Assembly: GCA_965116905.1 (NCBI GenBank)
Contig: OZ220732.1
Coordinates: 704,001-768,000, forward strand
DNA: 64,000 nucleotides
Direction: 5' to 3'
Origin: Longimicrobiales bacterium
GTDB lineage: Bacteria > Gemmatimonadota > Gemmatimonadetes > Longimicrobiales > Gaopeijiaceae
The first letter of the stretch is position 1, and every line of letters starts with the position of its first letter. Shown here piece by piece: positions 10,580 to 27,490 of this stretch. The position numbers were made by a program, and so were the translations under genes. The notes under the pieces are model-generated. The model was not told the DNA's origin. It worked only from the letters and a program-made list of their open reading frames with translations, and ran no database searches.

Positions 10580-11128
10580 TCAGAGTGCGTCAATCGCTTC
10601 TATCATCTGTTCCAACCGGCGGCCGTGCCCATCGAAACGAAGCACACCAGCCGAATCAAACACAAAGACCCAAGGCGTCCTGGAAAACAGAGGGTACATC
10701 GGGTCGGCAGGCGTCAGCGCTTCCGAGCTGAGGACATCTACATCCCAACCAAAGCGTTCGGCATAGGCCACCGCCGGCCCCACGGAATCGTTGGTCACCG
10801 CGATTCTCTGCGCGAAAGGTCTGTCGGTCTGGTCGGCAGCGAAGTGCTCCGCCCATTCCGGCGCCACAGCGTGACAGTGCACGCAATCCGGATGGAAGAC
10901 GTACAGGATCGTAGGAATGCCGGCATCGGTAGCGAGTCGAATGGTCGTGGGGACATCGCCTCCGAAGCTCCCCGTCAAGGCGAGCAAGGTGTCCCCGACG
11001 ACCATTTCGGCTGCGGTCGCCGACGGAGAGCCCACTTGCTGAGCCCGACTGACCGCCAGGACAGCCTGGCTGCCGACCCCCGCCACGAGCAAGAACAGCA
11101 ATGCGTTCAGCCAGTGCGTCGTCTTCAC
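10580..11128 (-). CDS. Exported thioredoxin-fold (TlpA/peroxiredoxin-like) protein
   Basis: Signal peptide, YVFHPDCVHC CxxC motif and cis-Pro loop RTPW. Confidence 0.8.
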   Translation of the reverse strand: MKTTHWLNALLFLLVAGVGSQAVLAVSRAQQVGSPSATAAEMVVGDTLLALTGSFGGDVPTTIRLATDAGIPTILYVFHPDCVHCHAVAPEWAEHFAADQTDRPFAQRIAVTNDSVGPAVAYAERFGWDVDVLSSEALTPADPMYPLFSRTPWVFVFDSAGVLRFDGHGRRLEQMIEAIDAL

Positions 11129-11198
11129 GATGAGGCGCCTCTCTGGATGGAGTGCGGTTTGGGCTGCTATACCTCTCCAAACGCAAGAGGGCTGGTCC

Positions 11199-11219
11199 GA
11201 ATACTGTCATTTTCCGACA
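11199..11219 (-). promoter_or_regulatory. Conserved 21-bp upstream motif, copy 1 (TGTCGGRRAATGMCAGTATTC on minus strand)
   Basis: Near-identical copies at 15129..15149 and 23451..23471, each upstream of a minus-strand gene. Confidence 0.55.
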
Positions 11220-11267
11220 CAGGGCCCGGCCATCCCGTCTTTTCGGATTCCCGGCCCGGACCGCCCT

Positions 11268-11771
11268 TCAGTCCTCCTCCATCCAGTCCATCAGCAGTAC
11301 CCTCATCTCCGGCATCTTTCGCAGCTTTGACATCGTCCGGTTGAGGATCGATCGTGCTGCAGATTGGCTCACTCCAATCGTTTCCGCGGTCTGCTTCAGG
11401 TTACGGCCCATGACCCCCCACACCGTCAGAGTGTCGCGCTCGCGGTCGGTAAGCCGGCTCAAGGCGGCTTGCACGATCGGTTGGGCTTCCTCCCGGCGCA
11501 CCTCGTCCAGGGGATCGCACCAATCCGCCGCCACCTCCATGGGGCTCGCCATTGGCACCTCCACTGCTCGAACCCGCTTCTCCGCCCGTAAGGCGTCGAC
11601 ACAGCGGTTCTTGCTGAGGGTGATTGCCCAACGAGCGAACGAACCGTTCCACTTGAACTGATCCAGCCGCTCCAGGATCGCCAGCCAACAGTCCTGGAGG
11701 AGGTCCTGAGCGTCGTCGTCGTCCCTGGCATACGGGCGAATCGCAACCCAGATGCGAGGGCTGAGTTCCAC
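11268..11771 (-). CDS. ECF RNA polymerase sigma factor
   Basis: Region 2 DDAQDLLQDCW...GSFARWAITLSKNRCVD and region 4 LSRLTDRER...AETIGVSQSAARS. The frame continues upstream (DPVDIERL) to an in-frame TGA, so the true start is uncertain. Confidence 0.85.
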   Translation of the reverse strand: MELSPRIWVAIRPYARDDDDAQDLLQDCWLAILERLDQFKWNGSFARWAITLSKNRCVDALRAEKRVRAVEVPMASPMEVAADWCDPLDEVRREEAQPIVQAALSRLTDRERDTLTVWGVMGRNLKQTAETIGVSQSAARSILNRTMSKLRKMPEMRVLLMDWMEED

Positions 11772-12007
11772 GACCAGCTCACGCAGAAGGTCCTCGTCGC
11801 GGTTGTGAAGCCGCTCGATATCGACTGGATCAGTGATCGATCAGTGCCTTCGCTGGCTGGACAATTGTGGGCATCGACGCCGCCGCGTTCTCGTCTCGTC
11901 TTCTCAGTGCGGTTGGAGCGCACCGGACCTAAAGATAGGCCAAAAGAGCCGCCGGGTACCGGACCGAACTGGAAGTCACGTGGACCGCTGGTTACCATTG
12001 AAGAACG

Positions 12008-13201
12008 ATGGGACTTCTAGCAACGCTCACGGGATCCAAAGCGGTCTCCCGAAAGCCAGTACCCGTGGGGTTCGCTGGCTCAGCCGTCCGTTGGTTTCTG
12101 GGACTGAGCGCGTTGTACGTCCTTTATGCTTCGGCCAACTTCGTCGGTTTCGCCGATGATCTCCGGATCGTCAACCGGCTCGGAATGGTGTTGGGACCCA
12201 CGATGGCGGCCTTGTCACTTCTGGTCGCGCCAGCCACCTTCGCGGCGGCAGCTGGCGACTCCGCCACCAAGGGGCGCGAGCGCGGAACTCTCCCCAAGCA
12301 AGTCGTGCGGTTGGTACTCCTCGCTCTAGGTGCCTATGCGTTGTACGGGGTTGGACCGCGGCTCAGTTCGGCCTTGCTGGTTGTGGAGGGCCGAGCCCCC
12401 ACCGTGGGCGCCACCTCGCAGATCGTGGACAGCGCTCGTTTCTGGGTGCCGAGCACAATCGCCATCTTCACTGTCCTCGCGGGTGTCGCGGGCGGGATTA
12501 CAAGCCGACTTGCGGAGTGGTGGAATCCCGGGCGGCGAGTCACGATGATGTGGTTGTCCTTTCTCGGCTTGTTCCTTTCCTTCTGGCTGCCGCTCCTGCT
12601 GACGACCAATATGATCCTGCACAGTGGCGTCGCACCCGCATGGATACTGCCAGGCTCTCTCCTGCTTCCCACTATTCTGATCGCAGGGATCGCCTGGTGG
12701 CAGGCCGAAGGTCTGCACCTACCGAATGTTCTTCGCCGTCGTCGAGGCCAGGACGGTCCGCACCACCGGCCCCGCCTCGACCGCGTAGACCGCGCCGTCA
12801 ATCCACCTGCTGACAGACCCGACGAGCCCGCCATTGCAGCGGCTACCGCCACCCGGGCCGAGCTGGAGATGATTCATCTGGCCAAGGGGATCCGCAGCGT
12901 GATCGGTCCCAGCGCCAATCTCTCACCGCAACGCGTGGACGAGATCGTCAACCGCTTGGTCGATGCTCCGCGGACTGAGGCAACCAGGCAGGAAGGGGCC
13001 CGGCGAGCACCTGACCGGATCCACCGACCGGCGACCGTGGGTCAATTCTGTACGAACTGGGCCTGCCTCGCGGCAGTCTTGCTGATGGTCGGGATGCTGG
13101 GTGGGGTGCCGCCCAATCTCGCATTGGCAGGGCTCGCGGGCTTGCTGGGGTCTGTCCTTATTCGGACGACAGCGGCCGGGACACTCAGCATGGCTCGGTA
13201 G
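12008..13201 (+). CDS. Multi-pass membrane protein with anti-sigma-like C-terminal part
   Basis: Several TM helices; by eye the N-part resembles 51832..52674 and the C-part resembles 53231..53686. Confidence 0.65.
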   Translation: MGLLATLTGSKAVSRKPVPVGFAGSAVRWFLGLSALYVLYASANFVGFADDLRIVNRLGMVLGPTMAALSLLVAPATFAAAAGDSATKGRERGTLPKQVVRLVLLALGAYALYGVGPRLSSALLVVEGRAPTVGATSQIVDSARFWVPSTIAIFTVLAGVAGGITSRLAEWWNPGRRVTMMWLSFLGLFLSFWLPLLLTTNMILHSGVAPAWILPGSLLLPTILIAGIAWWQAEGLHLPNVLRRRRGQDGPHHRPRLDRVDRAVNPPADRPDEPAIAAATATRAELEMIHLAKGIRSVIGPSANLSPQRVDEIVNRLVDAPRTEATRQEGARRAPDRIHRPATVGQFCTNWACLAAVLLMVGMLGGVPPNLALAGLAGLLGSVLIRTTAAGTLSMAR

Positions 13202-14045
13202 GGCTGGTCCCATTCGTGGTCCAGCCCCTCCTCTGCTCGCGCTGCAAGTCCGTCCTCACTTCCGGCAGCGCATCCGACTCATACTCAAGACCGGCGACAT
13301 CTCCGCAACGATCGGACCCGTAGTATTTGCGTCTGGTTGGGAGGAACTCAGGACTCTCGCAGCGGCGAACCCGGGCTCACCAGCGATCGTAGACCCCGAC
13401 CTCAACGGGATCGGCGCCCCGTGCGCCCTGGGCCAAGACGAGGGGCCTGGCCACCCTCAATACGCCCCCCCGGTGATCGAGTATCCGTGTTCGGACGCCC
13501 AGATGCGGTCGGTTTCGGACGAAACCGCGATTCCCGTGACGCGCGTGAAACAATGTGACGTCGGTGACATCCGTGCCCTGGAGCTCGCCATCCTCAAGAA
13601 CATCGACGCCGAACGGCTCCATCGACTGCTCACCCGCGCCGACGCACGGACTCCCGCGGGTGCCTCGCCCATTCTCCGTCTGTTTTTTTGGCGCGCGGTC
13701 GAACCATGCCGAGTCGGGGCCCTGGCCGCCGCTCTTGACGTGACGGAACGCACCCTGCTGCGCCGATGTCGTGGTCTGGGGATCGCCCGTCCCAAGGATC
13801 TGTGGGCGCTGGCTCGCGTCTTCGCGGTCGCACGGCTGCTCCATTGGAGCAAGCGGCCCTTGAGTTCCGTGGCCCTCGCCCTGGGGTTCTCGAATGACGC
13901 CAACTGCTACCGACTGCTACGTCGCATTCTGGGGAGGACCCTGTCGCGTGACATGACGAGGGACGACATGGATCGCGTCGAGGAGGTCATTCTGAGTGAG
14001 ATCGTCGGAACAAGCCGGACCGCGGGTGATCGCTCGGAGCAGTAA
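13101..14045 (+). CDS. AraC-family helix-turn-helix regulator (start uncertain)
   Basis: LAAALDVTERTLLRRC and SVALALGFSNDANCYRLLRR double HTH at the C-terminus. Confidence 0.75.
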   Translation: MGCRPISHWQGSRACWGLSLFGRQRPGHSAWLGRAGPIRGPAPPLLALQVRPHFRQRIRLILKTGDISATIGPVVFASGWEELRTLAAANPGSPAIVDPDLNGIGAPCALGQDEGPGHPQYAPPVIEYPCSDAQMRSVSDETAIPVTRVKQCDVGDIRALELAILKNIDAERLHRLLTRADARTPAGASPILRLFFWRAVEPCRVGALAAALDVTERTLLRRCRGLGIARPKDLWALARVFAVARLLHWSKRPLSSVALALGFSNDANCYRLLRRILGRTLSRDMTRDDMDRVEEVILSEIVGTSRTAGDRSEQ

Positions 14046-15059
14046 TCAGGTAGCCTCCACTGACGGCGATGGTTGATCCGGTTGCCCCGCACCATTGCCG
14101 ACACCCACCTCGCGGTTTTCGTGCTGCCGGAGGATTTCGGCTATTTCCGCTTTGATTCCTGGTTCTAACGAAATGAAGCCTGACTCCGATTCCTTTGGCT
14201 CGACGGCGACGAACCGGTTGAATTTCTCCCAGTACGACGGCAGGAATTCGTTCGCCTCATATGGCGACTGGATCCCAGCGTCGGCCAGTTCTTGCGGCAA
14301 GGCCTGGCGCAGGATTCGGAAAGAGCGCTTGTAGATGCTTCGGGCCCCAGGTCGGCATGAGGGTAGCACGTTGACGCCCAGTTTCCGCATCGCTTCAGAG
14401 AACCGGCCTGTTTCCCGACGGTCATCGTGATTCCGCAGCGCTCGACCTACGTGAATTGCGTGAAACAGCCCGTTGGATACGATGGTCTCATGGATGGTGC
14501 GAAACCGACACCAGATCGTCTCGCTTTCGACGAATAGTCCGGAGTGAACGCGATCACTCGCGTCATCGACCAGTGCCACCAACTCCCAGGTCCGCTTCGG
14601 CAACCACTGATAAGTGCAACCAGCCTGGTGAAGCAGTCGCCCCTCGGCGAGCTGCCGACCATCGCATTTTGGCGTCGACCGAGTGGAACGGCGTGGGGTC
14701 ACGAGGCCCGACTCGTGCAGATGATTCTTGGCCCAAGTGTATGACCGTGTACCCCCATGGGAGTCCCTGTACGCTCGGTAGAACTTGCGTACAGGCCATC
14801 CCCGGTACCGTTCCGCGTAGAGTGCTACCAACGCGGCAACTTCCTCGTCAGGTGCCCTTCGGGGATTCGTAGCCCGCCGATCTTCAAGCCCCTTCAGGCC
14901 CATTTCCCGGTACCTCGCGACGTATCGTCGGAAGGTCCGTTCAGAGATTCCCAAGAGGTATGCCGCGCGCGACTGACTGATATCACGGCTCGTCCACTGC
15001 TCATAGACCTCAGCAAATCTGGCCGTTCGCAGGTCGCGCATGGTAGATGTCTTGCTCAC
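14046..15059 (-). CDS. ISNCY/IS481-like transposase-derived protein with apparently substituted DDE triad
   Basis: HTH AAYLLGISERTFRRY, GTRSYTW, LVDDAS, LPQELADAGI...EANEFL; LHQAG, IHVGR and SIYKRSF occupy positions normally D, D and E. Confidence 0.75.
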   Translation of the reverse strand: MSKTSTMRDLRTARFAEVYEQWTSRDISQSRAAYLLGISERTFRRYVARYREMGLKGLEDRRATNPRRAPDEEVAALVALYAERYRGWPVRKFYRAYRDSHGGTRSYTWAKNHLHESGLVTPRRSTRSTPKCDGRQLAEGRLLHQAGCTYQWLPKRTWELVALVDDASDRVHSGLFVESETIWCRFRTIHETIVSNGLFHAIHVGRALRNHDDRRETGRFSEAMRKLGVNVLPSCRPGARSIYKRSFRILRQALPQELADAGIQSPYEANEFLPSYWEKFNRFVAVEPKESESGFISLEPGIKAEIAEILRQHENREVGVGNGAGQPDQPSPSVEAT

Positions 15060-15128
15060 TTAGCACTCTCACAGTTGGGTCGCTTGTTCTGGCCGCTCCA
15101 ACCATTTGAAACGTCAGGAAGTCAGGGA

Positions 15129-15149
15129 GAATACTGTCATTCCCCGACA
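15129..15149 (-). promoter_or_regulatory. Conserved 21-bp upstream motif, copy 2
   Basis: Forward gaatactgtcattccccgaca, about 70 bp upstream of the 15059 start. Confidence 0.55.
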
Positions 15150-15454
15150 TTGCGCCCAAAGCGAAGGCGATTTTCGCATGGGTCGCCGCGCTCCGAGTAC
15201 ATCCAGAGTCGCCTTGGCTGGACTTGGTTCCCATTCCGGCCAAGCCGACCACCGATTCCGCCAAGCCGATCGCAGATTCCAGGCGCGATGCCGATCACCG
15301 TCAAAGGAGCGGAGGTCCCTAGGCGCGCTGGGTGGCGGGTGAGGATTGGAGTTTAGGGTGTTGAGTCGGACTTCGTCGAGTCGTAGAGCCGTCTCATCGA
15401 AGTGCCTTTGACAGTGATGCGGTGAGTGTTGTTGAGGAGCCGTCCGAGGGCGCA

Positions 15455-16440
15455 CGTAACGGCATTGTTCCCGATCGGTCTTCTCGCATTCGAGAAGCAG
15501 AGAGAGGCGGTCGTCGAAGGAGAACTCGCTGATGTCGGGCATGGCGGTCTGCTCCTTGAAGGCCTGGGCCATGCCCGAGAGCCGGAGTTCGTGGGGCAGG
15601 TCGAAGGTGGGTTGGCGAAGCATGATCGTCAGGACTTTTTTCCGTTGTGGGAGGTGGTGTAGTACTCGGGCCCGCGGATGTGGGCGCGCTCTGCAGGCAG
15701 GGAGAGTTCATGCTGCTCGGCGGCGGCTTGGTCGCGGCCGGTTGCGAGGATGAAGTTGACGGATCGGTAGCTCAGCGTTCCGAATTCCAGCGCATGGTGG
15801 CAGGCGACCTCCAGACGTTCGGCCGAGTAGGCGCGCAGCGGGCTCATGAGCCCGAAGACAGCTGCGGTAGCCCTGTTCGAGGTGGGGTCGGCTCTCGAGG
15901 AGTTGTGCGATGAACCCGGCCGTGTGCGGTCCGGCCTTGCGGCCCCAGGCGATGAGGCGCGACGGAGTCCACTCGACGTGGGCGCGGTGGGCAGCCGGCA
16001 TGTGCGCCGGTTCGGCCGCGTATCCTCCTCTCCTGTGGATCCGCAGGTGCGCGGCCACCCGTCGGTGCTTGTGGAAGATCTCCACGGTATGGGCAGTGAT
16101 CCGAACGTCGACCTCGCGGCGGGCCAGCACGTGGGGACGCTGTACAGCGCGTGCCCGGTTTGGATGTGGTAGTCGATGTTCACGCGGGCCTTGCGCCACT
16201 CCGCGTACTCGTAGTGCTCGGCCGGGAGTGGCCTGAGCGCCGGCCGGTCCAGATCCTTGAACCAGCTGCGACGGCTGCCGTCGGTCTTTGTCGAACGGCC
16301 GCTCGTTCAGTGCCGCCAGCAGCGGCCGGGTGGCCTCGCGGAGCTCGCCGAGGGAGAAGAACGTCTGGTTGCGCAGCGGCGCCATGATCCAGCGCTCGAC
16401 GTTCTGGACCGCGGCCTCCACCTTCGTTGTCCCGTGGAGA
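15455..16440 (-). mobile_element. Degraded IS21-family element (istA 3' fragments and istB 5' fragment)
   Basis: KVEAAVQNVERWIMAPLRNQTFFSL, VNIDYHI, EWTPSRLIAW and HIRGPEYY in several frames (IstA); LRLSGMAQAF...FDDRLSLLLECE (IstB N-terminus), truncated. Confidence 0.85.
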
Positions 16441-16805
16441 GCCGGGCCGCGCCGACAGCACGGTGGTTCCGTAGCGGGTGGCCAGTTCCTAGTACCGGAA
16501 CACCTTGTACTCGCTATACCGGCAGCCTGTTGATCTAAGTATGTTATTCCCAATGGCATCACTGATCGGCATGCACCGGAATCAGCAGCTACTTGAGCTG
16601 CCCGAGGGCAGGTGGCGGAACGGAAAGTGAGACACATCGGCGACATCGGCGACTTGCCGTGCCATCGCTCCGTTCATGGAAGAGTCGCGCATCCGCTTCA
16701 GAACGCCCGCTGACCAATGGAGAAGCGGTAGGGCGCTTCTCCTAAGGTACGCCCCCAACAATGATCGCACCGTCCAGGCTACCGCAATCCGGGACATCTC
16801 GCTCG

Positions 16806-18008
16806 TCAGGATCGCGCCGCTACCACCTCATAAACCACCACATTCTGCACGTCCATTTCGTCCCTGAGCACCCCCAACACCAGCCCTCCGGTCACATCGA
16901 GGATTCGGAACCTGGGCGGAGTCTCAACCTGTCCCAGCCACTCCCCATCCGCGGAAATGACCGTGTACGGCGACCCCTCTTCCGGGTAGGCCGGCCGGTA
17001 GGAGGGCAACCATACGTTTCCGTCGGCGTCGGCGAAGGGGGTACCGAAGAGCGGTATCGGCTGTCCGATCATGGCACGATACCGGGCCATATCTCCCTGA
17101 ATGATCTCCTCGAGTCGGGCCTCGGATACTTCGAAGTTCATCCGGCTGATCATTCGGGTGTAGGCCTCGCCGTGCTCCAGGAGTTCCCCGGTCAGCAGGT
17201 TGGGCCCGGGCTGCCAGCGCACGATCTGCTCTACCGTCCCGTCCGTCCGCCGCCAGGTGATCTCGGGCCTGTCGGTCCTGGTGTAGACGAACCGCCCCGC
17301 GGCGGTCGTGACCTCGCCACTCGGCCGGATGATCGGCCTCGGCTGTCCCGACCGCTGTCGCGGGACGTGGTCGTACGACGCGACCGTGTCGAGCGCGCCG
17401 GTCTCGGTATCGAACAGGGTGATGTGCCCGGCGAGCCACTCCTCCTCTATATCGACCCAGGAACGGTAGGCGTATCGGTTCCAGAGCAGCAGCTCACCGG
17501 ATGAACCGATCCCCGCCACACCGAACTGGTGTCCCCGAGGGAGGCTCACGATGCGCGCGACCGAACCGCCCACAAAGAGAGTGAGGCGAGACAGGCGATC
17601 ATCGGGCACAAGGACGCTGTCCTGGCCCAGGACGAACAACGAGTAAGCGGAAATGACTTCGCCCGGTCCTTCCCCACGGCTGGCGAGGACCTCGTACGTC
17701 GTCCCGTCCGGACTCAAGACGACCACCTCGCCAGACCAATCGGCAACGACCGCGCGTCCATCGGGGAAGAGCCGGCCGGCGTCGGCGAACTGGAAGATGT
17801 AGTCGCCTGGGCCGCCGCCGTGGCGGTAGATCGGCCCTCCCGCGATGGCGAAGGGCGGCTCGACCTCGGGCACGCCCGTATACTGCACGATCCGGGCGCC
17901 GGCGCTGTCCGAGATCTGGACCGGGATGTCACGTGTGCCGGCGCTGTCTCCTTCGCAGGCGCCGAGGGCTGCCGACAGCATCAGAGCGCACTCGTGTCTG
18001 CGTCGCAT
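16806..18008 (-). CDS. 6-bladed beta-propeller-type lipoprotein
   Basis: Lipobox LGAC, ISDSAGARIV, RGEGPGE and C-terminal VLGVLRDEMDVQNVVVY. Confidence 0.75.
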   Translation of the reverse strand: MRRRHECALMLSAALGACEGDSAGTRDIPVQISDSAGARIVQYTGVPEVEPPFAIAGGPIYRHGGGPGDYIFQFADAGRLFPDGRAVVADWSGEVVVLSPDGTTYEVLASRGEGPGEVISAYSLFVLGQDSVLVPDDRLSRLTLFVGGSVARIVSLPRGHQFGVAGIGSSGELLLWNRYAYRSWVDIEEEWLAGHITLFDTETGALDTVASYDHVPRQRSGQPRPIIRPSGEVTTAAGRFVYTRTDRPEITWRRTDGTVEQIVRWQPGPNLLTGELLEHGEAYTRMISRMNFEVSEARLEEIIQGDMARYRAMIGQPIPLFGTPFADADGNVWLPSYRPAYPEEGSPYTVISADGEWLGQVETPPRFRILDVTGGLVLGVLRDEMDVQNVVVYEVVAARS

Positions 18009-18071
18009 TTCAATTCACCCGCTACCTAGTGCCTGTTTGGACAAGCGACAGCAAGTCCCCCGGTACTCTAC

Positions 18072-19562
18072 TCAAGTGATCACCGTCACCTGTGTCAAGG
18101 CCGCGCGGGCCGAAGAGATATCACCCCCCGCCATCGCCTCAATGAGGTCGGCCACCCATTCCGGCACCCCGAGGTCCAGCAAGAAACCGATGAAGGTCGC
18201 GTGGCAGTTAGGGTTGAGATGGGACAGAGCGGCCGTGGGCACCAAGGTGTTCAACAGCACGCGCGAGGCGGCGTAGTAGTCGTCGTCAAAATCCCAGACG
18301 CCGCTCGTGATACGCTGCTTCCGGAAGAAACCGGGAGTAGTCCAGGTACTGAGCACCGGCATCAAGTGTTCGTCTTTTCCCACACGGATCGCTGCCTCGA
18401 AATCGATGAGCCGAATGTCCCAACTATCGGCATCAACCATCACGTTGTTGCTGGACAGATCCGATATGATCACCCCACGGGCGTGGATTGCCTCGATGGC
18501 ATCGAGAAGCGACTCGGAGAGTCGATGGAACTTCGGTTGGATGTCGTTGAATGACATGCCGTTCCGCGCGTGGGGAAGCCACAAATTTTCAGGCTGACCG
18601 GCGGCAGTCCTCAGCATTACGCCTTGGATCTTCTCTGCCGCCATGAATAAGTGCTCCCACTCCCTGAAAAGCTTGATCGGGCGCACGGTGCAGTCCAATC
18701 CCTCTAGGTGTCGCAATACGTCGAACTCGTGCTCAAGGAGCAAATGGGAATCTATGGTGGCCGTTCCCCGCGTCGTCCGGTGCACGTGCGGTCGAGCCTC
18801 CTTGATAACGACCGTGCTCCCGGATTCCAGATCGATGGCTTCGTACACGCCCCCCCTGTTGTTGGCGGAGATCATCGCCGTGACCTCGAACGAGCCGCCG
18901 ATCACCGCTCCGTCGTCTTCTTCGCCGGACTCCTCGAAGGGATCTTCAACCCACGGCGGAAGCGAAAAAAATGCTTGGCGCTGGTCCCGCATCTCGCTCC
19001 CGTCCGGCCCCGTCAACACGGTGACCTCGAATCCGTCGGGCGTGAGTCGGCTTCGGGGCCTCATCCCTCCGTAGCGATAATACAGGACTTTGCTGTCTTT
19101 GTACCGTCGATCAGAGAGGATATACTGGCCTACAAAGTCCTTCCCTGCAGTCTCTTTGTACAGAGTCTCGAGCAGATTCAGGAATGCCTCATGGTTCGGT
19201 GGATAGATTGTTATGAACTTGCCTCCGCCACCCCGATCACGGTTTTTGCCGTTTTGGAATTCGAGAAGCTCAGGGCCGGCGGTGCATTTGAACGAAATGT
19301 CGCGTGCGACACATACTCTCGTCACGAGCCCTAAGAGCTCCTTTGCGCAATCAGGAATGCTAGAGACGTGGATCTTGAATCCCTGCTCAGGCACTTGGTG
19401 GACGAAGCGGTCGACCTGCAACCAGATATCGTGACGGCGGACATGCCACCCCGATTCCGGCAGGTATGATAGCACCTCATCCCGGAAATCACTCCGGACC
19501 GGCGCGAGAGCCGGCGCCTCGTACCATTGCTTGCTCGCTAACTGGTGCGCGTTTCTACTCAC
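18072..19562 (-). CDS. Class III lanthipeptide synthetase lyase+kinase subunit (LanKC lacking the cyclase domain)
   Basis: Lyase motifs QGFKIHVS, GKFITIYP and ILSDRRY...YYRYGG; kinase motifs NRGGVYEA...VVIKEARPH, HARGVIISDLSSNNV and LIDFEAA. The stop falls right after the kinase domain. Start at GTG 19562 is inferred; the ORF track starts at 19700. Confidence 0.88.
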   Translation of the reverse strand: MSRNAHQLASKQWYEAPALAPVRSDFRDEVLSYLPESGWHVRRHDIWLQVDRFVHQVPEQGFKIHVSSIPDCAKELLGLVTRVCVARDISFKCTAGPELLEFQNGKNRDRGGGGKFITIYPPNHEAFLNLLETLYKETAGKDFVGQYILSDRRYKDSKVLYYRYGGMRPRSRLTPDGFEVTVLTGPDGSEMRDQRQAFFSLPPWVEDPFEESGEEDDGAVIGGSFEVTAMISANNRGGVYEAIDLESGSTVVIKEARPHVHRTTRGTATIDSHLLLEHEFDVLRHLEGLDCTVRPIKLFREWEHLFMAAEKIQGVMLRTAAGQPENLWLPHARNGMSFNDIQPKFHRLSESLLDAIEAIHARGVIISDLSSNNVMVDADSWDIRLIDFEAAIRVGKDEHLMPVLSTWTTPGFFRKQRITSGVWDFDDDYYAASRVLLNTLVPTAALSHLNPNCHATFIGFLLDLGVPEWVADLIEAMAGGDISSARAALTQVTVIT

Positions 19563-19581
19563 GACGCTGGGATGTGAAGGG

Positions 19582-20748
19582 TCACGAGGTGACGATCGCC
19601 GATGGTGGACACTCGACGTCGCCCACAAGATCGACGAATGGATTAGCGGTCGGCTGGAGCAGCCGTTGAAAGAAAAGCCCCACTCCAGCAGTACCAGCAA
19701 CGATATCGTTGCTGATCCGAGACAACCAGCGATCCGGATACGCGAACCCTTCGGGCCGGGGAATCCGATACAGCAGCAACGTTCGAGCGATGTCGGCGCA
19801 CCGATCGAGATACTCCTCTTTCCCCGTAGCGATGAAACAGTCGAGCATGTATTCGCCTATGCCGGTGAGTCCGCTTTCGAGGCCCGGCTGAATGGTCCAA
19901 ATCGATGCAGTTGCCTCAGCGATCGTCTCTGCAATCTCGAGATAGCGACGGTCGCCCAGTCCTAAAGACATTCGTAGCGCAACCCCCCCAATTCCCACAG
20001 CACCGCTTCCCCAATACGGAAGCACGACATTGCCCCCGGCGTACGCCGGCCATGTCCATCCGTGAGAGCCATCCCGCCGATGCGCAAAATCGAACTCGAA
20101 GGCCTTGATCGCCGACTCGACGAAGCGATCCTCCCCTGCCGTGTGACCGGCGAGCATGAGAAACAGTCCAACCCCGCTGGCGCCGAATCCATAGCCAAGA
20201 GGAGCCTCCTCGCCAGACATCGGAGCCCAGGTCAGGCCAAGTTCCTCACGGATGGCCGTCTTCACCAGCCACTGGGCAGCGGAAACGGCCCCTTCCAGAT
20301 ACTCTTGCCGCTGGGTCTTTTCGAAGAAGTACAGGCTCGTCATTCCCCAGCCAGCGTCACCGTGGAACATGGACGCTTCCGAGTGACGTAGCGGAGAGGA
20401 GTAGCTCAACGATATTGCCTCCTCCGCCTTTCTCGTCATGCCCAGTTCGGACAAGCAGTATCCGATTCCCGCCAAACCTAGCCAATAACCAGGAGCATAT
20501 CTGTCCGTACTCAAGTGTTGTCGCTCAATCCACTTGACCGTAGGGGCCGCTAATCCTCTCCCCACACGATATAGGAACAGCGCAGGTCCAACGGCTCCGT
20601 GGGCCAAGCTCATGGGGTTTGTACCGAACACTTCAACACCCGCTGGCCATAGGCGATCCGTTCGCTCCGGCGTTGCCGTGGCTTCAACGTAGTCCGCCAT
20701 GCCGTCCAGTGTCTGGCGGATGTCCTCTTTCAACTCGCTTGGGATCAT
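19582..20748 (-). CDS. Stand-alone LanC-like cyclase of class III type (no zinc-binding Cys)
   Basis: ATATPERTDRLWP, SLAHGAVG, LPYWGSGAVG, PGLESGLTG and RISNDIVAGTAGV resemble the LanKC cyclase domain; WCxG/CHG zinc motifs are absent. Confidence 0.85.
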   Translation of the reverse strand: MIPSELKEDIRQTLDGMADYVEATATPERTDRLWPAGVEVFGTNPMSLAHGAVGPALFLYRVGRGLAAPTVKWIERQHLSTDRYAPGYWLGLAGIGYCLSELGMTRKAEEAISLSYSSPLRHSEASMFHGDAGWGMTSLYFFEKTQRQEYLEGAVSAAQWLVKTAIREELGLTWAPMSGEEAPLGYGFGASGVGLFLMLAGHTAGEDRFVESAIKAFEFDFAHRRDGSHGWTWPAYAGGNVVLPYWGSGAVGIGGVALRMSLGLGDRRYLEIAETIAEATASIWTIQPGLESGLTGIGEYMLDCFIATGKEEYLDRCADIARTLLLYRIPRPEGFAYPDRWLSRISNDIVAGTAGVGLFFQRLLQPTANPFVDLVGDVECPPSAIVTS

Positions 20749-20840
20749 TGCATTCCGTAAAAAAGGCGTTCGTACCCAACAAGGCAGCCGCAGCCTGCCG
20801 CCAGGTGACGTTAGACGGGCTTGGATACCGGCGTGAGCCA

Positions 20841-20886
20841 CCTGCACCGCGGGGTGAAACCGAAGAACCGACCGCCGCGGTGCAGG
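20841..20886 (-). other. Stem-loop between precursor and cyclase genes
   Basis: 12-bp perfect inverted repeat CCTGCACCGCGG/CCGCGGTGCAGG with CTTCGG in the loop region on the minus strand. Confidence 0.7.
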
Positions 20887-20909
20887 GTGAACTCACGCAA
20901 CCGGGGCAA

Positions 20910-21053
20910 CTAGTTGTCGCCGGTATCGTTGCAGTGGATGCTGATCTCGGACGGCTCCATTTCGCCGCAGTAATAGCTGTACTTACTGTCGACCAAGGCC
21001 GTCGGGTCGTCCTGCGCGACGCTCAGACGCTGCAAGCCGAGGATCCTGCTCAT
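20910..21053 (-). CDS. Class III lanthipeptide precursor (47 aa)
   Basis: Manual translation MSRILGLQRLSVAQDDPTALVDSKYSYYCGEMEPSEISIHCNDTGDN*; AAGGAG RBS; ILGLQ leader and two S-x2-S-x2-C motifs. Confidence 0.9.
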   Translation of the reverse strand: MSRILGLQRLSVAQDDPTALVDSKYSYYCGEMEPSEISIHCNDTGDN

Positions 21054-21460
21054 GGTGTACTCCTTACCGCAGGGGTTCACTTAGTCAAGCTCCACAGCGG
21101 AACTCAACTCCAGGCGATCCGGCTCCAACTGGAAACCTAGTCTGAATCACCTGACGCAATGCTAACCTCCAGGGACCTGCTCCGCAAGTTGTTGGCAGGT
21201 TGTGTGTTAGGAGCATATCCATTGTCCGGTCACGCGAGCAAATAGCGTGGCCGGTCCTGGGGGATCCAAGGCTACGCACTTGGAATCCACAGGCGGATAC
21301 TGGCGCTCGATCTGGGCTATGCTGAAGCACGACTTCCGACCTCTACCTGGTGAGCGCCCGACACGTTAAGCAGGTCCTCGGCCGCAAGACGGGCGTAGGG
21401 ACTGCGAGTGGCTCGCGCAGCTTCTGGAGTGCGAGCTGCTCGAGAGCAAGTTGGAGCTCG

Positions 21461-23338
21461 CTAGCGATACCCAGCCGCTTGAAGGGCGAACAGTTCGGCG
21501 TACTGACCTTCGGCATCCATGAGCACTTCGTGGCTGCCTTGTTCGAATACCGATCCATCTCTGAGGACGATGATGCGGTCGGCCATTCTCACGGTCGAGA
21601 ACCGGTGACTGATCAGAACGCCGATTCTGCTCGAAACGAGATCCGAGAACCGTTGGAAGACCTCGTACTCCGCTCGGGCGTCCAGGGCAGCGGTTGGCTC
21701 GTCGAGAATCACTATCTGCGCGTCGCGCATGTATGCGCGGGCGAGAGCGATCTTCTGCCACTCGCCACCCGAGAGTTCAGCACCCGACTGGAAACGACGG
21801 CCTAGCAGTTGCTCATACCCATTCTCCAGTCCACTGATGACGCGGGCGGCCAAGCTCTTCTCGGCTGCGGCCACTACCCGGGCCATGTCGTTGTCGGCCG
21901 CAACGCACCCCACTGCAATGTTCTCGCGTGCTTTCAAGTCGTAGCAGAAGAAGTCCTGGAGGATGACTCCGAATGCTCCCCTCAAGGACTCCAGATCGTA
22001 CAGCTTGAGATCCCTTCCGTCTAACAGGATCCGGCCCTCCGTCGGATCATAAAGACGAGTCATGAGCTTCACCAATGTCGTCTTTCCTGCCCCATTCTCT
22101 CCGACTAGTGCAACGCATTCCCCCGGAGAGATTTCGAGCGATACATCACGGAGGGCCCATCGCTCGGACCCAGCGTATCGGAACCCGACGTTCTCGAACA
22201 CCAGACCACGTCGAATGGGATTGGATACGATTATTGCGTTCACCGGAGAGACAATCGTTGAACGAACCTCGAAAAACTCAAAGAGATCTTTGACAAACAG
22301 CCCCTGCTCGTAACCTTGCGCGACCCCCATCAAGATCCCGGTGATCAAAGTGCGACTACGCTGGAAAGCCCCGGTCAGGAATGCGAGCGTCCCAATGGTA
22401 ATGATGCCCATCGCGGCTTCGTAGACGATCGTGGCCACGGCGCCGTAGTAAGCCAACGTGGATACCGACGCCAACAGAATGCCGGTAACAGTACGACTCG
22501 TGGCAACTCGACGGTGTTCGGCAATGTAGTCGTTTGCCAATGTCGAATACCTGTCGGCCAAATGTTCGGATAGACCGAAGAGCTTAATCTCCTTTGCTGG
22601 CAGGATATCGGTTGCGAGCCATCTGTAGTATGCCAACTCTCGGCGCTCTCGCGTCCACTGAAACATGAATGAGTAGGTGATTCCAGCGTACTTGGCCTCA
22701 CCGAGCACCGCTGGTAGCGTCGCCAACAAGAGAATAAGGAGCAGCCAAGGCTGGAAGGCGATGATTGCGGCAAGGAGAGACATCACCGTTACCGACTGCT
22801 GGCCGATCGTTAGAACCTGGGACAGTAGAGTGACGCGTCGGGACGTATGCACCCTCGCTCGCAAGAGCTTGTCGAAGAAGCTCGGATCTTCCAGCCTCTC
22901 TAGGTCAAGCACTCCGGCGTGACGCATCAAACGCACGGACAACTCGTTCGTGAAAAGTTCGCCTAGAAGATTCTCAAGCAGGCTTCCGATGCGTTGCAAC
23001 ACGTCCGACAGAAGGGCGATCGCCAACTCGAGTAGCACGAGCTTGATCAACAGTCCCCAGTTCAGAGGTGGCGACTGGACGCTGACGACGACGGCGTCGA
23101 TGATGAGCTTGCCTACCCACAGCATCGCGATTGGCATGAGCCCGACTAGTACGCGAACGGTCACGATTCCCAATGCGTAAGTGGGCTTAGTCGACCAGAC
23201 CAGCTTTACGAAGCGGGCGATGCTGCGAAGGGCCGCGAGCCGCTCCTTGATCGGCGGTATCGGCCGACCGTCACGGGTCCTAGGCCGATAAAAGGCGCCC
23301 GGCGTCACGGCAAGTGCTCGGGTGCCGTGGTGGCGCAC
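21461..23338 (-). CDS. ABC exporter, fused permease/ATPase (LanT-like by context)
   Basis: TM domain, GENGAGKTT, LSGGEWQKIALARA, ILDEPTAALD and ISHRFSTVR. Confidence 0.92.
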   Translation of the reverse strand: MRHHGTRALAVTPGAFYRPRTRDGRPIPPIKERLAALRSIARFVKLVWSTKPTYALGIVTVRVLVGLMPIAMLWVGKLIIDAVVVSVQSPPLNWGLLIKLVLLELAIALLSDVLQRIGSLLENLLGELFTNELSVRLMRHAGVLDLERLEDPSFFDKLLRARVHTSRRVTLLSQVLTIGQQSVTVMSLLAAIIAFQPWLLLILLLATLPAVLGEAKYAGITYSFMFQWTRERRELAYYRWLATDILPAKEIKLFGLSEHLADRYSTLANDYIAEHRRVATSRTVTGILLASVSTLAYYGAVATIVYEAAMGIITIGTLAFLTGAFQRSRTLITGILMGVAQGYEQGLFVKDLFEFFEVRSTIVSPVNAIIVSNPIRRGLVFENVGFRYAGSERWALRDVSLEISPGECVALVGENGAGKTTLVKLMTRLYDPTEGRILLDGRDLKLYDLESLRGAFGVILQDFFCYDLKARENIAVGCVAADNDMARVVAAAEKSLAARVISGLENGYEQLLGRRFQSGAELSGGEWQKIALARAYMRDAQIVILDEPTAALDARAEYEVFQRFSDLVSSRIGVLISHRFSTVRMADRIIVLRDGSVFEQGSHEVLMDAEGQYAELFALQAAGYR

Positions 23339-23450
23339 GTGAACGCGCCGCGTTCCAGCATCGCCCAGCTCTTCAACGGCCTCTCCGTCTCAACCCTTGG
23401 GGTGCACTTCCTGGCCAACTTGCCTACTCAAACGTTAGGGGAGCTGGCTG

Positions 23451-23471
23451 GAATACTGGCATTCCCCGACA
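23451..23471 (-). promoter_or_regulatory. Conserved 21-bp upstream motif, copy 3
   Basis: Forward gaatactggcattccccgaca upstream of the ABC exporter. Confidence 0.55.
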
Positions 23472-23510
23472 TTCGGCCTGAACGGATATGCTCGGGGGAA
23501 TCGGCCAGGT

Positions 23511-23744
23511 CTACGACGAGACAACGAAGGAACGATCCGTGCAGAACCCAAAAGCGACCGCAACACCGGAACACGCGCAACCCCTTGGCTTGCTACACTG
23601 CTTGTCTCGAGAAATGCAACTATCGCCGCACGGCTTCCCCGTTCGGCAGACCCGGCAACATGACGTTGTTGGCTCCGTCGTCGTACAGGACGCGGAACCG
23701 AAGACCAACAGCATTGCGAGGGCCACAATGACGGGTGCCTTCAT
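23511..23744 (-). CDS. Small Cys-rich lipoprotein-like peptide
   Basis: AGGAGG RBS, ATG at 23744, lipobox-like GSASC, then CCRVCRTGKPCGDSCISRDKQCSKPRGCAC. Confidence 0.72.
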   Translation of the reverse strand: MKAPVIVALAMLLVFGSASCTTTEPTTSCCRVCRTGKPCGDSCISRDKQCSKPRGCACSGVAVAFGFCTDRSFVVSS

Positions 23745-23880
23745 CAGTCTGGAGCCTCCTGCCGTACGTGAGCGCAATCCGGACATCCGAAGTGTCGGCC
23801 GCCGGCCAGTCGCGCCTGCCTGATATAGACCAGAACCCCCGATTCGCCGGGGCCGCTTCCCCCTATGGACATCACGTACT

Positions 23881-25050
23881 TCAACTAGAGGGCACGGTGT
23901 GCCGCTTTGGATTCGAGACGGCATGGACATCCTCGTCCCGCACGCTCAACCTCGCGATGCGCCAAGGGGGGAAGTCCTTGTTGATCAGCAAGTAGAGAAA
24001 CCGTCCTCCCCCCAGAACCACAGAGTTTTCGGGCAGCGGCACGTCCTGATACAGCCCGGTACCAGTGTGGCGGTCATAAAGGTCAATCAGCACATGAGAC
24101 CACCGGAATGCCGTTCCTTGTGTCGCGTCATAGGTGGCCCTCGTAAACATGAGGTGGCGTTCAACCACATCGATTCGGTGAATGAATTCGAAACTGGCCA
24201 GGAAGTCACCAAACGAGGCGCCGTAGGCCTCGGAGCCCGCGAGAGCGCCTCCCTCCAACACCGGGATCGGCCGAAACGACTCTGAAGGCTCACCAATCAC
24301 GCCCACGGTATCTCCGTCAACGTTGAGGATCGTCGCAGGAAAACGGGCACCCGACATCGCGTAGATGGAGTCACCGCCGACCGCAATCGGCGTTCCCACC
24401 ATCGAACTCCAGTATGGCCTCTCATGTGTGAGGAACGGGTAGTTGAAGCCGCTCCAAGCCAGCTCCGCGCCGATGAGCCGATGAAGGATGGGCGGGCGGC
24501 CGCGCGAATCAAACCATGTTTCGTGATCAGCAGCCCGCGTCATACGTACTATCAGGTCCGGGCCCATCGCGATCACGCTCGTGGCCGGTCCAGGTATTGG
24601 CAACAGTGTGTCCGACTGCAGGTCACTGGTCAGGTAAGTCAGGTTCGACTGCAGAGAGTTCGGTACCACGATTGCGCCGGAAGCCGTTTCGGCAACACTG
24701 TTGATCCAGCGGAATTCGAAAGGACCGTCGCCGAATCTGCCAAACGATGCGACCAATCGACCGTTCTCGGCGTAGCGCCGAATCCTTGGCAGGAGATTGT
24801 CGCCAACAACGAAGCCTCCGTCCCGAAGCTCCGCAAAGGCGCCGATTTCGGCGATGGAATCGCCTGGGTCTTCTTGTAGTTCGATAACGTCCTCGACTTC
24901 GAACACCTGCTCGAAGGTCGCCGAGACCGGCTCCAAGTCGTCCGTGGACTCCGCTGCCTGCCCGCAAGCCACGAGCAGCGACGCAATTGGGATCGCAGAT
25001 AGGCAGCACTGGCGTGCCGGCCCACGACGGTCGTTCAAGACCGACATCAA
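23881..25050 (-). CDS. 6-bladed beta-propeller-type lipoprotein
   Basis: Lipobox LVAC and FGRFGDGPFEF motif. Confidence 0.75.
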   Translation of the reverse strand: MMSVLNDRRGPARQCCLSAIPIASLLVACGQAAESTDDLEPVSATFEQVFEVEDVIELQEDPGDSIAEIGAFAELRDGGFVVGDNLLPRIRRYAENGRLVASFGRFGDGPFEFRWINSVAETASGAIVVPNSLQSNLTYLTSDLQSDTLLPIPGPATSVIAMGPDLIVRMTRAADHETWFDSRGRPPILHRLIGAELAWSGFNYPFLTHERPYWSSMVGTPIAVGGDSIYAMSGARFPATILNVDGDTVGVIGEPSESFRPIPVLEGGALAGSEAYGASFGDFLASFEFIHRIDVVERHLMFTRATYDATQGTAFRWSHVLIDLYDRHTGTGLYQDVPLPENSVVLGGGRFLYLLINKDFPPWRIARLSVRDEDVHAVSNPKRHTVPSS

Positions 25051-25069
25051 GCTCGAGTGTTATCGAAGG

Positions 25070-25312
25070 TCAGTTAACGATGATCTCATCTAGGCAGCAG
25101 ATGTAGTTGTAGGTATCGCAACTATCTCCAACACAACGATAGCGCTGGTTGGGATCACCATAAGCCCCATCCACACAATACTCATCTTCAGCAGGGCAAT
25201 ACCCGTCGCTAGCTCTCACTGGCACAGGCTCTACCGTCGCGTAGGCGATCATCAGCGCTACTGCCAGCGCTGTTGCGCACGCCGCACGCATCCACTTACT
25301 GATGGCGTTCAT
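25070..25312 (-). CDS. Secreted acidic 6-Cys peptide
   Basis: AAGGAG RBS, signal peptide, core CPAEDEYCVDGAYGDPNQRYRCVGDSCDTYNYICC. Confidence 0.78.
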   Translation of the reverse strand: MNAISKWMRAACATALAVALMIAYATVEPVPVRASDGYCPAEDEYCVDGAYGDPNQRYRCVGDSCDTYNYICCLDEIIVN

Positions 25313-25329
25313 TCTGGTCTTCTCCTTGG

Positions 25330-25995
25330 TTATGATTGACTGCGGATTGCTTCGCTAGGGAATATGCCCAAGAGGCTCCCAACCTGAGCCTCGAAGCTCC
25401 AAGCGCAACTCAGGGCATTCTGCCTGGAGTCGGCCATGACGACCGTGCCTGTGTGATCGACAAGGATCTTTGTGTTTCCGAGTAGCGGCCCAAAGTCAGC
25501 CAGCGCTTGTTCCCGAGACAGCGACTTTATTCTCGTCCCTCGAAGCCCTTGCCGTGCAGTCCTCGGTATCTCGTGTTCTGCCAGGCCGACTACCAGCAGA
25601 TGACGCGTCAGAGAGTCACCTCTTGACAGCCCATTCCATAGGCCGAACCTGCCGGTCAAACAGGTCGCGCAGCGCTCAATGTCCACGATCCAGAGTAGAC
25701 TATAACCCGAGTCCGAAGAACTGCCGGTGGCAGGGTGCAATAAGGACGGGAGTCGCAGTTCCGCACCGACCAGCCGGTCCTGGACGACCAGCCTTTCTGC
25801 GGCACCCCCGGTAACCTGTATGACCGCCTGAAGATCCCGGTTCACTGACGCCGTTTTCCACACCCAAAGTAGGGCGCCGACAACCAAACCGACGGTGACA
25901 AGCTCCCAGACTTGCCGACCCTGAAGATTCCACATTGTTGGCACGCTCCCCGAAGCCAAAGCCTCCCTCGTCTCCAAGATTCCTCCCAGAAACAC
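25330..25995 (-). CDS. Membrane-anchored thioredoxin-fold-like protein
   Basis: N-terminal TM helix, LLWIVDIERCATC CxxC and NTKILVDHTGTVV strand. A TTGACA-N16-TACCGT promoter-like sequence lies upstream (about 26033..26060). Confidence 0.65.
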   Translation of the reverse strand: MFLGGILETREALASGSVPTMWNLQGRQVWELVTVGLVVGALLWVWKTASVNRDLQAVIQVTGGAAERLVVQDRLVGAELRLPSLLHPATGSSSDSGYSLLWIVDIERCATCLTGRFGLWNGLSRGDSLTRHLLVVGLAEHEIPRTARQGLRGTRIKSLSREQALADFGPLLGNTKILVDHTGTVVMADSRQNALSCAWSFEAQVGSLLGIFPSEAIRSQS

Positions 25996-26143
25996 GTTCC
26001 TCCCAAGAGGCGTTCAAGGGCTGATCCTCCGAACGGTAGGATACAGAATACTGCTGTCAAGTAGGGTCACCATACGCACGTGAAATGGCTGGTGCACTAG
26101 CACGTATATGGCCGCCTATGTCGGCGTGCCAGTCACCCCAATG

Positions 26144-27490
26144 TCACCCCCCCACCACCACCCGGCTCACCACCAGCGTCGCCACATCGAACTCATCGCT
26201 CTCCAGATGCGCCACGAGCCCATCGGGTCCGAACGCGATCGGCATCGCCGGCTCCCCGGCCGACAGCGTCCCCACGTATTCCCGGTCCGCGTTGTACACG
26301 TCGATCGGCCCCTCGTCGTCCCACGGATTCTCACTGCGGCGCTGGATCCACAGCCCGCCGTCCCAGGTCGCCCTGATCCCCTGAACCACGGGGACTTCGT
26401 GGTAGAATTCGCGATCCCGAATTCTTCGGCGGCTCTGCTCGGGGTCCCTACCGATCGGCAGGCTCGTAGAGGGAGGAGTCGCCAACCACTCCTCAAGACG
26501 CTGAAGGTGGAAGGCGATCGTTCCCCGCCGGATCCGTTCCGACACCGCCTCCGGCAAGAGCGGCCGGCTCAGCACCTCGGTCACCGATCCATCGGGCGAG
26601 GTGAGCTTGATGACGTACGCCGAGGAGTCGGAATAGGCGATGGTGCCGTCGGGCAACACGTCCCAGTGAAACCCCGGCTCAAAGTACCGGTCCTCTACGG
26701 CCGCGACGATCGCCGGCCAGTCCTCCAGGCTCGTGGATGTTGGCGGCTCGGGACGCGGAGCCCGCCAACCCTGCAAAACCGGCTCCCTTGCGGTCACATC
26801 GCCGGAGAGGTCCAGCGCCTCGAGCGCGCGGTCATCGACGCCATCCGTTTCCTCGTCCGGGTACTCCATGAGCCGGTTCATGAAGTTCATCATCTCGACC
26901 AACACGCCCTCGACGCCGCGAGCGATAATCCTGTCGCCCAGCGGATCGGCCCGAATCTCCTCGTGACGAAGCGCGGTGGACAGCGTTCTTGGCTCGCTGG
27001 CCGACCTGACGAACCGCTCGAGTTCGCCGTCCGGGCTGAACACCTGGACCGCCGAATGCTCCGTGTCGGGCACCGCAAAGCGGCCGTCGCGCCACACCGC
27101 GAGCGCCCGTATTTCCTGAAACTCGCCCGGGCCCTCGCCCTCGCGGCCCACGACACGCACAAGCCGGCCATCGGGTCCGACGACGACGACCCGCTTGTTG
27201 AAGGCGTCCAGCACGAGCAGGTTGCCGGCTCCGTCGAAGCTCGCCTGCAAGGCAGGGACCGGCCCGAAGAGGGCCCACTCCGGCGCGTTCACGCCGCCCG
27301 CTCGATACACCTCGGTCACGTCCACGGTCAGCGGACGGTCCTGCGCGGCGGACGCGGTGGGGAGGATGGGGGCAAGGGAGAGGGTCAGGGCAATGGCCAG
27401 GGTCTGGGCCAGAGCCAGGGTCTGGGTCGAGCAAACGGCCGGGGCCTGCGCCAAGCCAATATGCACGGGAGGCGACAGGCGGTGTTTCAC
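26144..27490 (-). CDS. 6-bladed beta-propeller-type secreted protein
   Basis: Signal peptide, VGREGEGPGEF and C-terminal AFGPDGLVAHLESDEFDV. Confidence 0.8.
   Translation of the reverse strand: MKHRLSPPVHIGLAQAPAVCSTQTLALAQTLAIALTLSLAPILPTASAAQDRPLTVDVTEVYRAGGVNAPEWALFGPVPALQASFDGAGNLLVLDAFNKRVVVVGPDGRLVRVVGREGEGPGEFQEIRALAVWRDGRFAVPDTEHSAVQVFSPDGELERFVRSASEPRTLSTALRHEEIRADPLGDRIIARGVEGVLVEMMNFMNRLMEYPDEETDGVDDRALEALDLSGDVTAREPVLQGWRAPRPEPPTSTSLEDWPAIVAAVEDRYFEPGFHWDVLPDGTIAYSDSSAYVIKLTSPDGSVTEVLSRPLLPEAVSERIRRGTIAFHLQRLEEWLATPPSTSLPIGRDPEQSRRRIRDREFYHEVPVVQGIRATWDGGLWIQRRSENPWDDEGPIDVYNADREYVGTLSAGEPAMPIAFGPDGLVAHLESDEFDVATLVVSRVVVGG

Follow-up and report, generated by a model that had tools for sequence, protein, structure and literature searches.

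Lanthipeptides are divided into classes by the architecture of their modifying enzymes, and the class III enzymes (LanKC) are described, in the accessible parts of the literature, as one polypeptide with the order lyase-kinase-cyclase. The usual class III core peptide contains two Sx2Sx2-5C motifs (PMC8341899, available text), and in class V the kinase and the lyase are separate proteins (PMC11330476, available text). For ThurKC, the accessible sections of PMC10604976 report that the lyase-kinase part alone was inactive, that activity was regained with the cyclase as a separate protein, and that the dissected halves did not run as a stable complex in gel filtration. The mechanism of the zinc-free cyclase and its control over dehydration were stated to be unresolved in the passages available from PMC10604976, PMC11330476 and PMC13504147.

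The locus described here lies in a Longimicrobiales genome, within a stretch of 64,000 nucleotides that was analysed as a whole and is called the window below. Its genes are read on the minus strand in the order ABC exporter, precursor, cyclase, lyase-kinase, and its features are as follows:

21461..23338, minus strand: ABC exporter, permease and ATPase, 625 aa (ABC_tran and ABC_membrane)
20910..21053, minus strand: precursor peptide, 47 aa (called from a Shine-Dalgarno site and sequence features)
20825..20909, minus strand: RNA hairpin between the precursor and cyclase genes (z = -5.0)
19582..20748, minus strand: stand-alone zinc-free class III cyclase, 388 aa (LANC_like; NF038151 positions 483-831)
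19563..19581, minus strand: spacer of 19 nt from the cyclase stop to the lyase-kinase start
18072..19562, minus strand: lyase-kinase didomain, 496 aa, GTG start (RamC_N and Pkinase; NF038151 positions 4-445)

The NCBIfam model of class III LanKC (NF038151, 833 positions) was covered by the two enzymes in a complementary manner, positions 4-445 by the lyase-kinase and 483-831 by the cyclase, with the order inverted. The first-pass annotation had described a separate cyclase gene 5' of a lyase-kinase gene that ends after the kinase, and this layout was confirmed by the complementary coverage and by the junction sequence. The lyase-kinase ORF ends at the last kinase helix (position 18072), its GTG start at 19562 aligns with the ATG starts of two related loci (L001 and L002), and an identical 496-aa product is present in the protein collection. 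The longest ORF in this frame is open back to 19700; the overlap of reading frames noted earlier at 19582..19700 is thus only open frame 5' of the true start, and the two genes are 19 nt apart. Since the GTG start has no clear Shine-Dalgarno site, the lyase-kinase is likely translated by re-initiation after the cyclase stop. The ABC exporter, which occupies the same place in L002 (87% identity, dN/dS 0.13), is likely the export route of the peptide. Hairpins were also predicted at the corresponding site in L002 (z -5.5), L003 (-4.7) and L001 (-4.0) with changed stem sequences, and the hairpin in the window is likely a stabiliser of the precursor message or an attenuator of read-through. Sigma-70 promoter and terminator signals showed no excess over shuffles.

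Around the cluster, positions 14046-16646 of the window hold an IS481-like transposase ORF and apparent fragments of a second transposase, which we take to be IS21-like. The flanks at 10580-14045, 16806-18008 and 23881-27490 encode two regulators, an ECF sigma factor and one of AraC type, together with CxxC-containing thioredoxin-like ORFs and a number of proteins predicted to be beta-propeller lipoproteins. The gene at 16806 has paralogues elsewhere in the genome, and an AraC-like gene also lies 5' of the precursor in L003 and L005.

The catalytic residues of the lyase-kinase were mapped on those given for ThurKC, namely eight lyase residues and the kinase set (PMC10604976, accessible sections). 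The lyase residues K65, H67, K94, K108, K117, D152, R163 and R191 of ThurKC correspond to K63, H65, K92, K106, K115, D151, R163 and R195 of the window enzyme, so that an OspF-like domain with the aligned Lys/His/Asp/Arg set of class III LanKC is present. In the kinase, the Lys-Glu pair (K254, E279), D368 and the DFE motif (D387-F388-E389) were all found. K63, H65, K92, K115, D151, R163, R195, K254, E279, D368 and D387 are invariant in 43 of 43 rows, and K106 (40/43) and E389 (42/43) are nearly so. In comparison with L001 and L002, the cyclase has a dN/dS of 0.18-0.19 and the lyase-kinase one of 0.16, near the 0.13 of the exporter. By these ratios purifying selection is acting on both halves, and both look functional.

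The cyclase was modelled with a pLDDT of 88, and its best fold match was the ThurKC chain (TM 0.77). Read off the profile alignment, the zinc-ligand positions of NisC (S726/F770/D771 in ThurKC) are occupied by G247/E291/S292, without the Cys/Cys/His triad, which agrees with the earlier remark that the cyclase lacks zinc-binding Cys motifs. A network of R610, D667 and D771 is needed in the ThurKC and TherKC cyclases; as far as the available text of the sources goes, it is specific to subclasses III-a and III-c, class III-b enzymes without it still cyclise, and PneKC, which lacks it, uses another residue pair. In the window cyclase the network is not plainly kept: opposite D667 the profile alignment places F188, opposite R610 F128 with H129 adjoining, and opposite D771 S292, in a column that is acidic in 14 of 27 rows and Ser in 12; D131 and E291 lie nearby. 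The published III-b and III-c cyclase signature motifs, as written, are absent from its sequence. Because PneKC also does without the network, this divergence was taken as a caution and not as a refutation.

In terms of class, the one-polypeptide arrangement of class III LanKC is replaced by two genes, whose products score 395 and 215 bits with NF038151 and so both stay under the 575 bits that this model requires of a whole protein. The cyclase does not have the zinc Cys-Cys-His set of class IV LanL, and both halves score higher with NF038151 than with NF038150. The kinase and lyase of class V are on separate polypeptides, and the contrast drawn with that class in the first reading stands, as RamC_N and Pkinase share one 496-aa ORF. 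The window system appears to work like a class III LanKC while departing from its one-polypeptide definition. Another LanC-like match in the genome, at C1 2346156-2347277 (within a 922-aa frame, 2346108-2348876), was considered as a partner and rejected as distant and unlinked.

The precursor has an ILGLQ leader, two SxxSxxC motifs (S23-x2-S26-x2-C29 and S35-x2-S38-x2-C41) and a short tail, and was the sole leader-like small ORF in a pattern scan of the 4.2-Mb genome. Its match to the class III lanthipeptide model NF038159 was weak (E 0.008, under the cut-off). The ring residues are kept in L001-L003 and other positions vary; dN/dS over 45 codons was 0.8-0.9 with respect to L001 and L002, with the Ser/Ser/Cys scaffold retained. 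The class III character ascribed to this peptide from the start is upheld by the leader, the two motifs and the scaffold common to L001-L003.

Searches with each half returned many split relatives. Among the 34 cyclase matches, 27 were of 379-416 aa (one marked partial by its source), and among the 120 lyase-kinase matches listed, 43 proteins of 473-532 aa without a LanC domain ranked above the first fused LanKC. All eight lyase-kinase-only protein ends that were inspected stop at the same helix; most of these proteins, including those of Streptomyces, were classed by length alone. One split pair has adjacent accessions (HEX7089413.1 and HEX7089414.1), and equal longest-contig sizes in nine lyase-kinase-only/cyclase pairs suggest linkage. 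The clusters P0059, P0060 and P0062 comprise 57 sequences, mostly Streptomyces lyase-kinase-only proteins of about 513-546 aa, for which L004 is the nearest split locus in the tree. A plasmid search gave only remoter matches (at most 40% identical), and the two records inspected were fused LanKCs.

Gene orders were read in DNA from 89 scanned loci and L090. The cyclase precedes the lyase-kinase in the window, L001, L002 and L003 (lyase-kinase cut by the contig end in L003), so the cyclase-first order was indeed found in other genomes, at 83% (L001), 83% (L002) and 60% (L003) identity to the window. The lyase-kinase precedes the cyclase in L004, L010 (two pairs) and L026 (cyclase cut); the order precursor, lyase-kinase, ABC, cyclase occurs in L005 and its near-copies L006 and L007, and lyase-kinase, precursor, ABC, cyclase in L090. 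L008 has ABC followed by cyclase, the rest missing. Fused LanKCs of the same wider clade are common (L009, L011-L013, L015-L018, L020-L024, L029), and they also account for three of the four matches in the 401 genomes around G645 and for one of the two matches around G072. The window locus belongs to a multi-phylum family whose split members show four gene orders and lie nested among fused LanKCs; the inversion is a trait of one subclade.

Several of these loci have features of their own. In L010 (3908-12547) a single precursor precedes two split lyase-kinase/cyclase pairs, which are only distantly related and have a permease gene in between; subunit mixing or two-step modification is possible there. 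The enzymes of L001 and L002 are 97-98% identical and their precursors identical, although the records are titled Bryobacterales and Gemmatimonadetes; this would reflect either a recent transfer between phyla or a mis-binned L001 contig, which is 3.2 kb long. L011 (4465-5718), L021 (7155-8468) and L023 (6437-7594) each have, directly after the fused LanKC, a second LanC-like gene that is distantly related. In L012 (3569-4356 and 8779-8910) a fused LanKC occurs with five related precursors that have SxxSxCC-x2-3-SCxSxxC cores.

FastTree trees were built for each half (176 and 169 rows). In both, the window falls in a 15-row clade with support 100 that contains every cyclase-first locus present in that tree and is nested in starred clades (22 and 25 rows) that have no fused member. 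Beyond the starred clades, split and fused rows interleave. A single origin of the split was rejected in AU tests run on an LG+G4 quick tree of 40 hand-picked rows of the 176 (all 25 split rows held together as one clade, the other 15 rows being fused; p 4e-7), and so was a single clade of 21 core split rows (p 0.003), a group chosen after inspection of the tree. The sampling behind these trees was uneven, the split rows coming from query-centred searches and many being classed by length only. Given the interleaving and the rejection of a single split clade, the linker would have been cut more than once, or later re-fusions would have occurred. The cluster is patchy, being present in 2 of 53 genomes of the genus and with three strong matches among 401 genomes of the phylum, and its GC content is 0.58 against 0.68 for the genome. 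These facts point to horizontal spread of the cluster.

The same facts could be read as signs of a decaying, horizontally acquired cluster with non-working fragments, along with the transposase remnants 1.5-4 kb away and the database protein P0031, which suggests a deleted copy in a relative. Such decay deserves hardly any credence, as the frames are intact and their dN/dS (0.16-0.19) is like that of the ABC gene, the catalytic residues are invariant, the ring residues and hairpin are conserved, and the layout is retained down to 60% identity. P0031 (581 aa, from a 4.23-Mb ENA contig and known from the protein alone) has about 92 mid-cyclase residues (approximately 127-218) joined in frame to the lyase-kinase. 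It could equally be cited for one permuted cyclase-lyase-kinase protein that a sequencing error has broken or that read-through or programmed frameshifting makes whole, an idea that the frame open back to 19700 would also suit, as would L003, where the cyclase and lyase-kinase are in frame with one TGA between them. However, most of the cyclase is missing from P0031, which looks like the product of an assembly error or of a deletion in a close relative that removed the junction between the two genes. The junction sequence itself was checked, as the first reading had advised, against short-read contigs from two studies that span the cluster (17901-23678 and 17764-23800; one of the two is possibly from the source sample), and neither a difference nor a gap was found. 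The junction measures +19 nt in the window and L001, -4 (an ATGA overlap) in L002 and +3 with GGAGG in L003, and the lyase-kinase of each of these three relatives has its own ATG while its frame offset relative to the cyclase varies; no single recoding event fits all of these junctions. No permuted protein was present among 345 collected proteins or among the best 150 of a profile search over 1.84 billion proteins, and all 27 of 27 long matches, at best 40% identical, were in the normal LanKC order. The frameshifted, circularly permuted protein that the first-pass annotation had kept in play was thus rejected, and we regard it as very improbable. A simple frameshift in a normal lanKC had been dismissed there already, and rightly so, as two assemblies show no indel and the order is inverted.

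We consider it likely that the locus is a class III LanKC-type cluster in which the synthetase has been divided at the linker between kinase and cyclase, the cyclase gene coming first, and that the two products act in trans, the cyclase being needed for activity. This two-component reading was first proposed from the layout, and the conserved loci, selection, catalytic residues, complex model and ThurKC dissection argue for it. The ILGLQ leader would bind in the groove that lyase and kinase form, a mode known from ThurKC and TherKC; the kinase would phosphorylate S23, S26, S35 and S38, and the lyase would eliminate the phosphate to give dehydroalanines. The free cyclase is predicted to dock on the N-terminal segment of the lyase-kinase, a lyase loop and the kinase C-lobe, and not only ring closure but also the activity of the kinase would probably depend on it. 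Two rings would then be formed with C29 and C41, as labionins or as lanthionines that leave a dehydroalanine over, and the product may be exported by the ABC transporter with its leader trimmed by a protease encoded elsewhere; a genome scan with a strict motif of M1 leader peptidases found nothing, although so narrow a motif could miss one. The split probably goes back to fission of fused LanKCs within the same wider clade, either repeatedly or followed by re-fusions, after which the gene order would be free to change.

The heterodimer prediction that had been suggested as a check gave a complex score of 0.90 against 0.49 for the best control, with contact agreement of at least 97% and a partner pLDDT of 92; the score mark was reached by 116 of 157 solved pairs and 2 of 215 mismatched pairs. 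Since structures of fused homologues have been solved, the model expresses resemblance to these enzymes and does not demonstrate binding. The modelled interface comprises residues 3-16, 173-179, 324-334 and 441-460 of the lyase-kinase and 31-47, 82-91, 281-286 and 326-346 of the cyclase. A tighter interface evolved after fission was also considered and gave no signal, as split members show no higher conservation of the predicted interface columns than fused ones do (conservation ratio 1.20 vs 1.22 for the cyclase; 0.87 vs 0.75 for the lyase-kinase, which is not enriched). This lack of extra conservation, and genes that can be 2-2.6 kb apart, would suit the main rival, in which the lyase-kinase dehydrates by itself and the free cyclase comes into play later, without a functional complex, either like a class I LanC or just to steer rings that would close in any case. 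Such independent, sequential action seems unlikely to us, since cyclase mutations in ThurKC and TherKC impair dehydration, and the invariant or nearly invariant cyclase residues D31, P35, F41, T43, N44, R344 and S346 lie in the modelled interface. As dissected ThurKC formed no stable complex, a lasting heterodimer is not assured for the window pair even if action in trans, the reading we prefer, is correct.

A natural split into lyase-kinase and cyclase was not found in the accessible full-text literature. Tentatively, and leaning slightly against so broad a statement, we propose that the family represents an undescribed two-component synthetase, in which a lyase-kinase works with a free, zinc-independent cyclase as an obligate activating subunit, that it occurs in Gemmatimonadota, Acidobacteriota-labelled, Chloroflexota, myxobacterial and probably Streptomyces genomes, that it arose repeatedly at one linker, and that it is missed by mining rules requiring kinase and LanC in one protein. 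If true, the subunits of two-pair loci such as L010 may combine freely with each other to act on a single precursor. One such rule, in the available text of PMC7268733, demands the kinase and LanC in the same protein and would leave split clusters unclassified, and their products are therefore probably unexplored. A naturally free cyclase would allow cyclisation to be studied apart from dehydration, with titratable coupling, and subunit swapping may be of engineering use. The Streptomyces lyase-kinase-only proteins occur in cultured species and could give easy access if a partner cyclase is confirmed.

Compared with known systems, the window pair is closest in parts to the class III LanKCs (ThurKC, TherKC, PneKC, SalKC and CurKC), sharing a homologous lyase, a kinase with the DFE motif, a zinc-free cyclase and a precursor with a hydrophobic LxLQ-type leader and two SxxSxxC motifs. 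It differs in being two polypeptides with the cyclase gene first, in being about 27-30% identical to the solved enzymes where comparable, and in not plainly keeping R610/D667/D771. Class I also has its dehydratase and cyclase on separate genes, but LanB uses glutamyl-tRNA and LanC uses zinc, neither of which is used in the window system. Class VI LanKCb of streptococci, reportedly a kinase-cyclase without lyase in the work of He et al. 2023, resembles it as a truncated LanKC-type architecture with another cut, whereas the window kinase keeps its lyase and it is the cyclase that is detached. Class V likewise spreads phosphorylation-elimination chemistry over several polypeptides, and some class V clusters are said (Pei et al. 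2022) to have a stand-alone LanC; unlike these, the window lyase and kinase stay fused and LanKC-derived, and the cyclase is of class III type. The artificially split ThurKC, as described in the accessible sections of PMC10604976, was cut at the same kinase-cyclase position and its halves were active in trans, but it is a laboratory dissection, while the split in the window is natural and, by sequence comparison, under selection.
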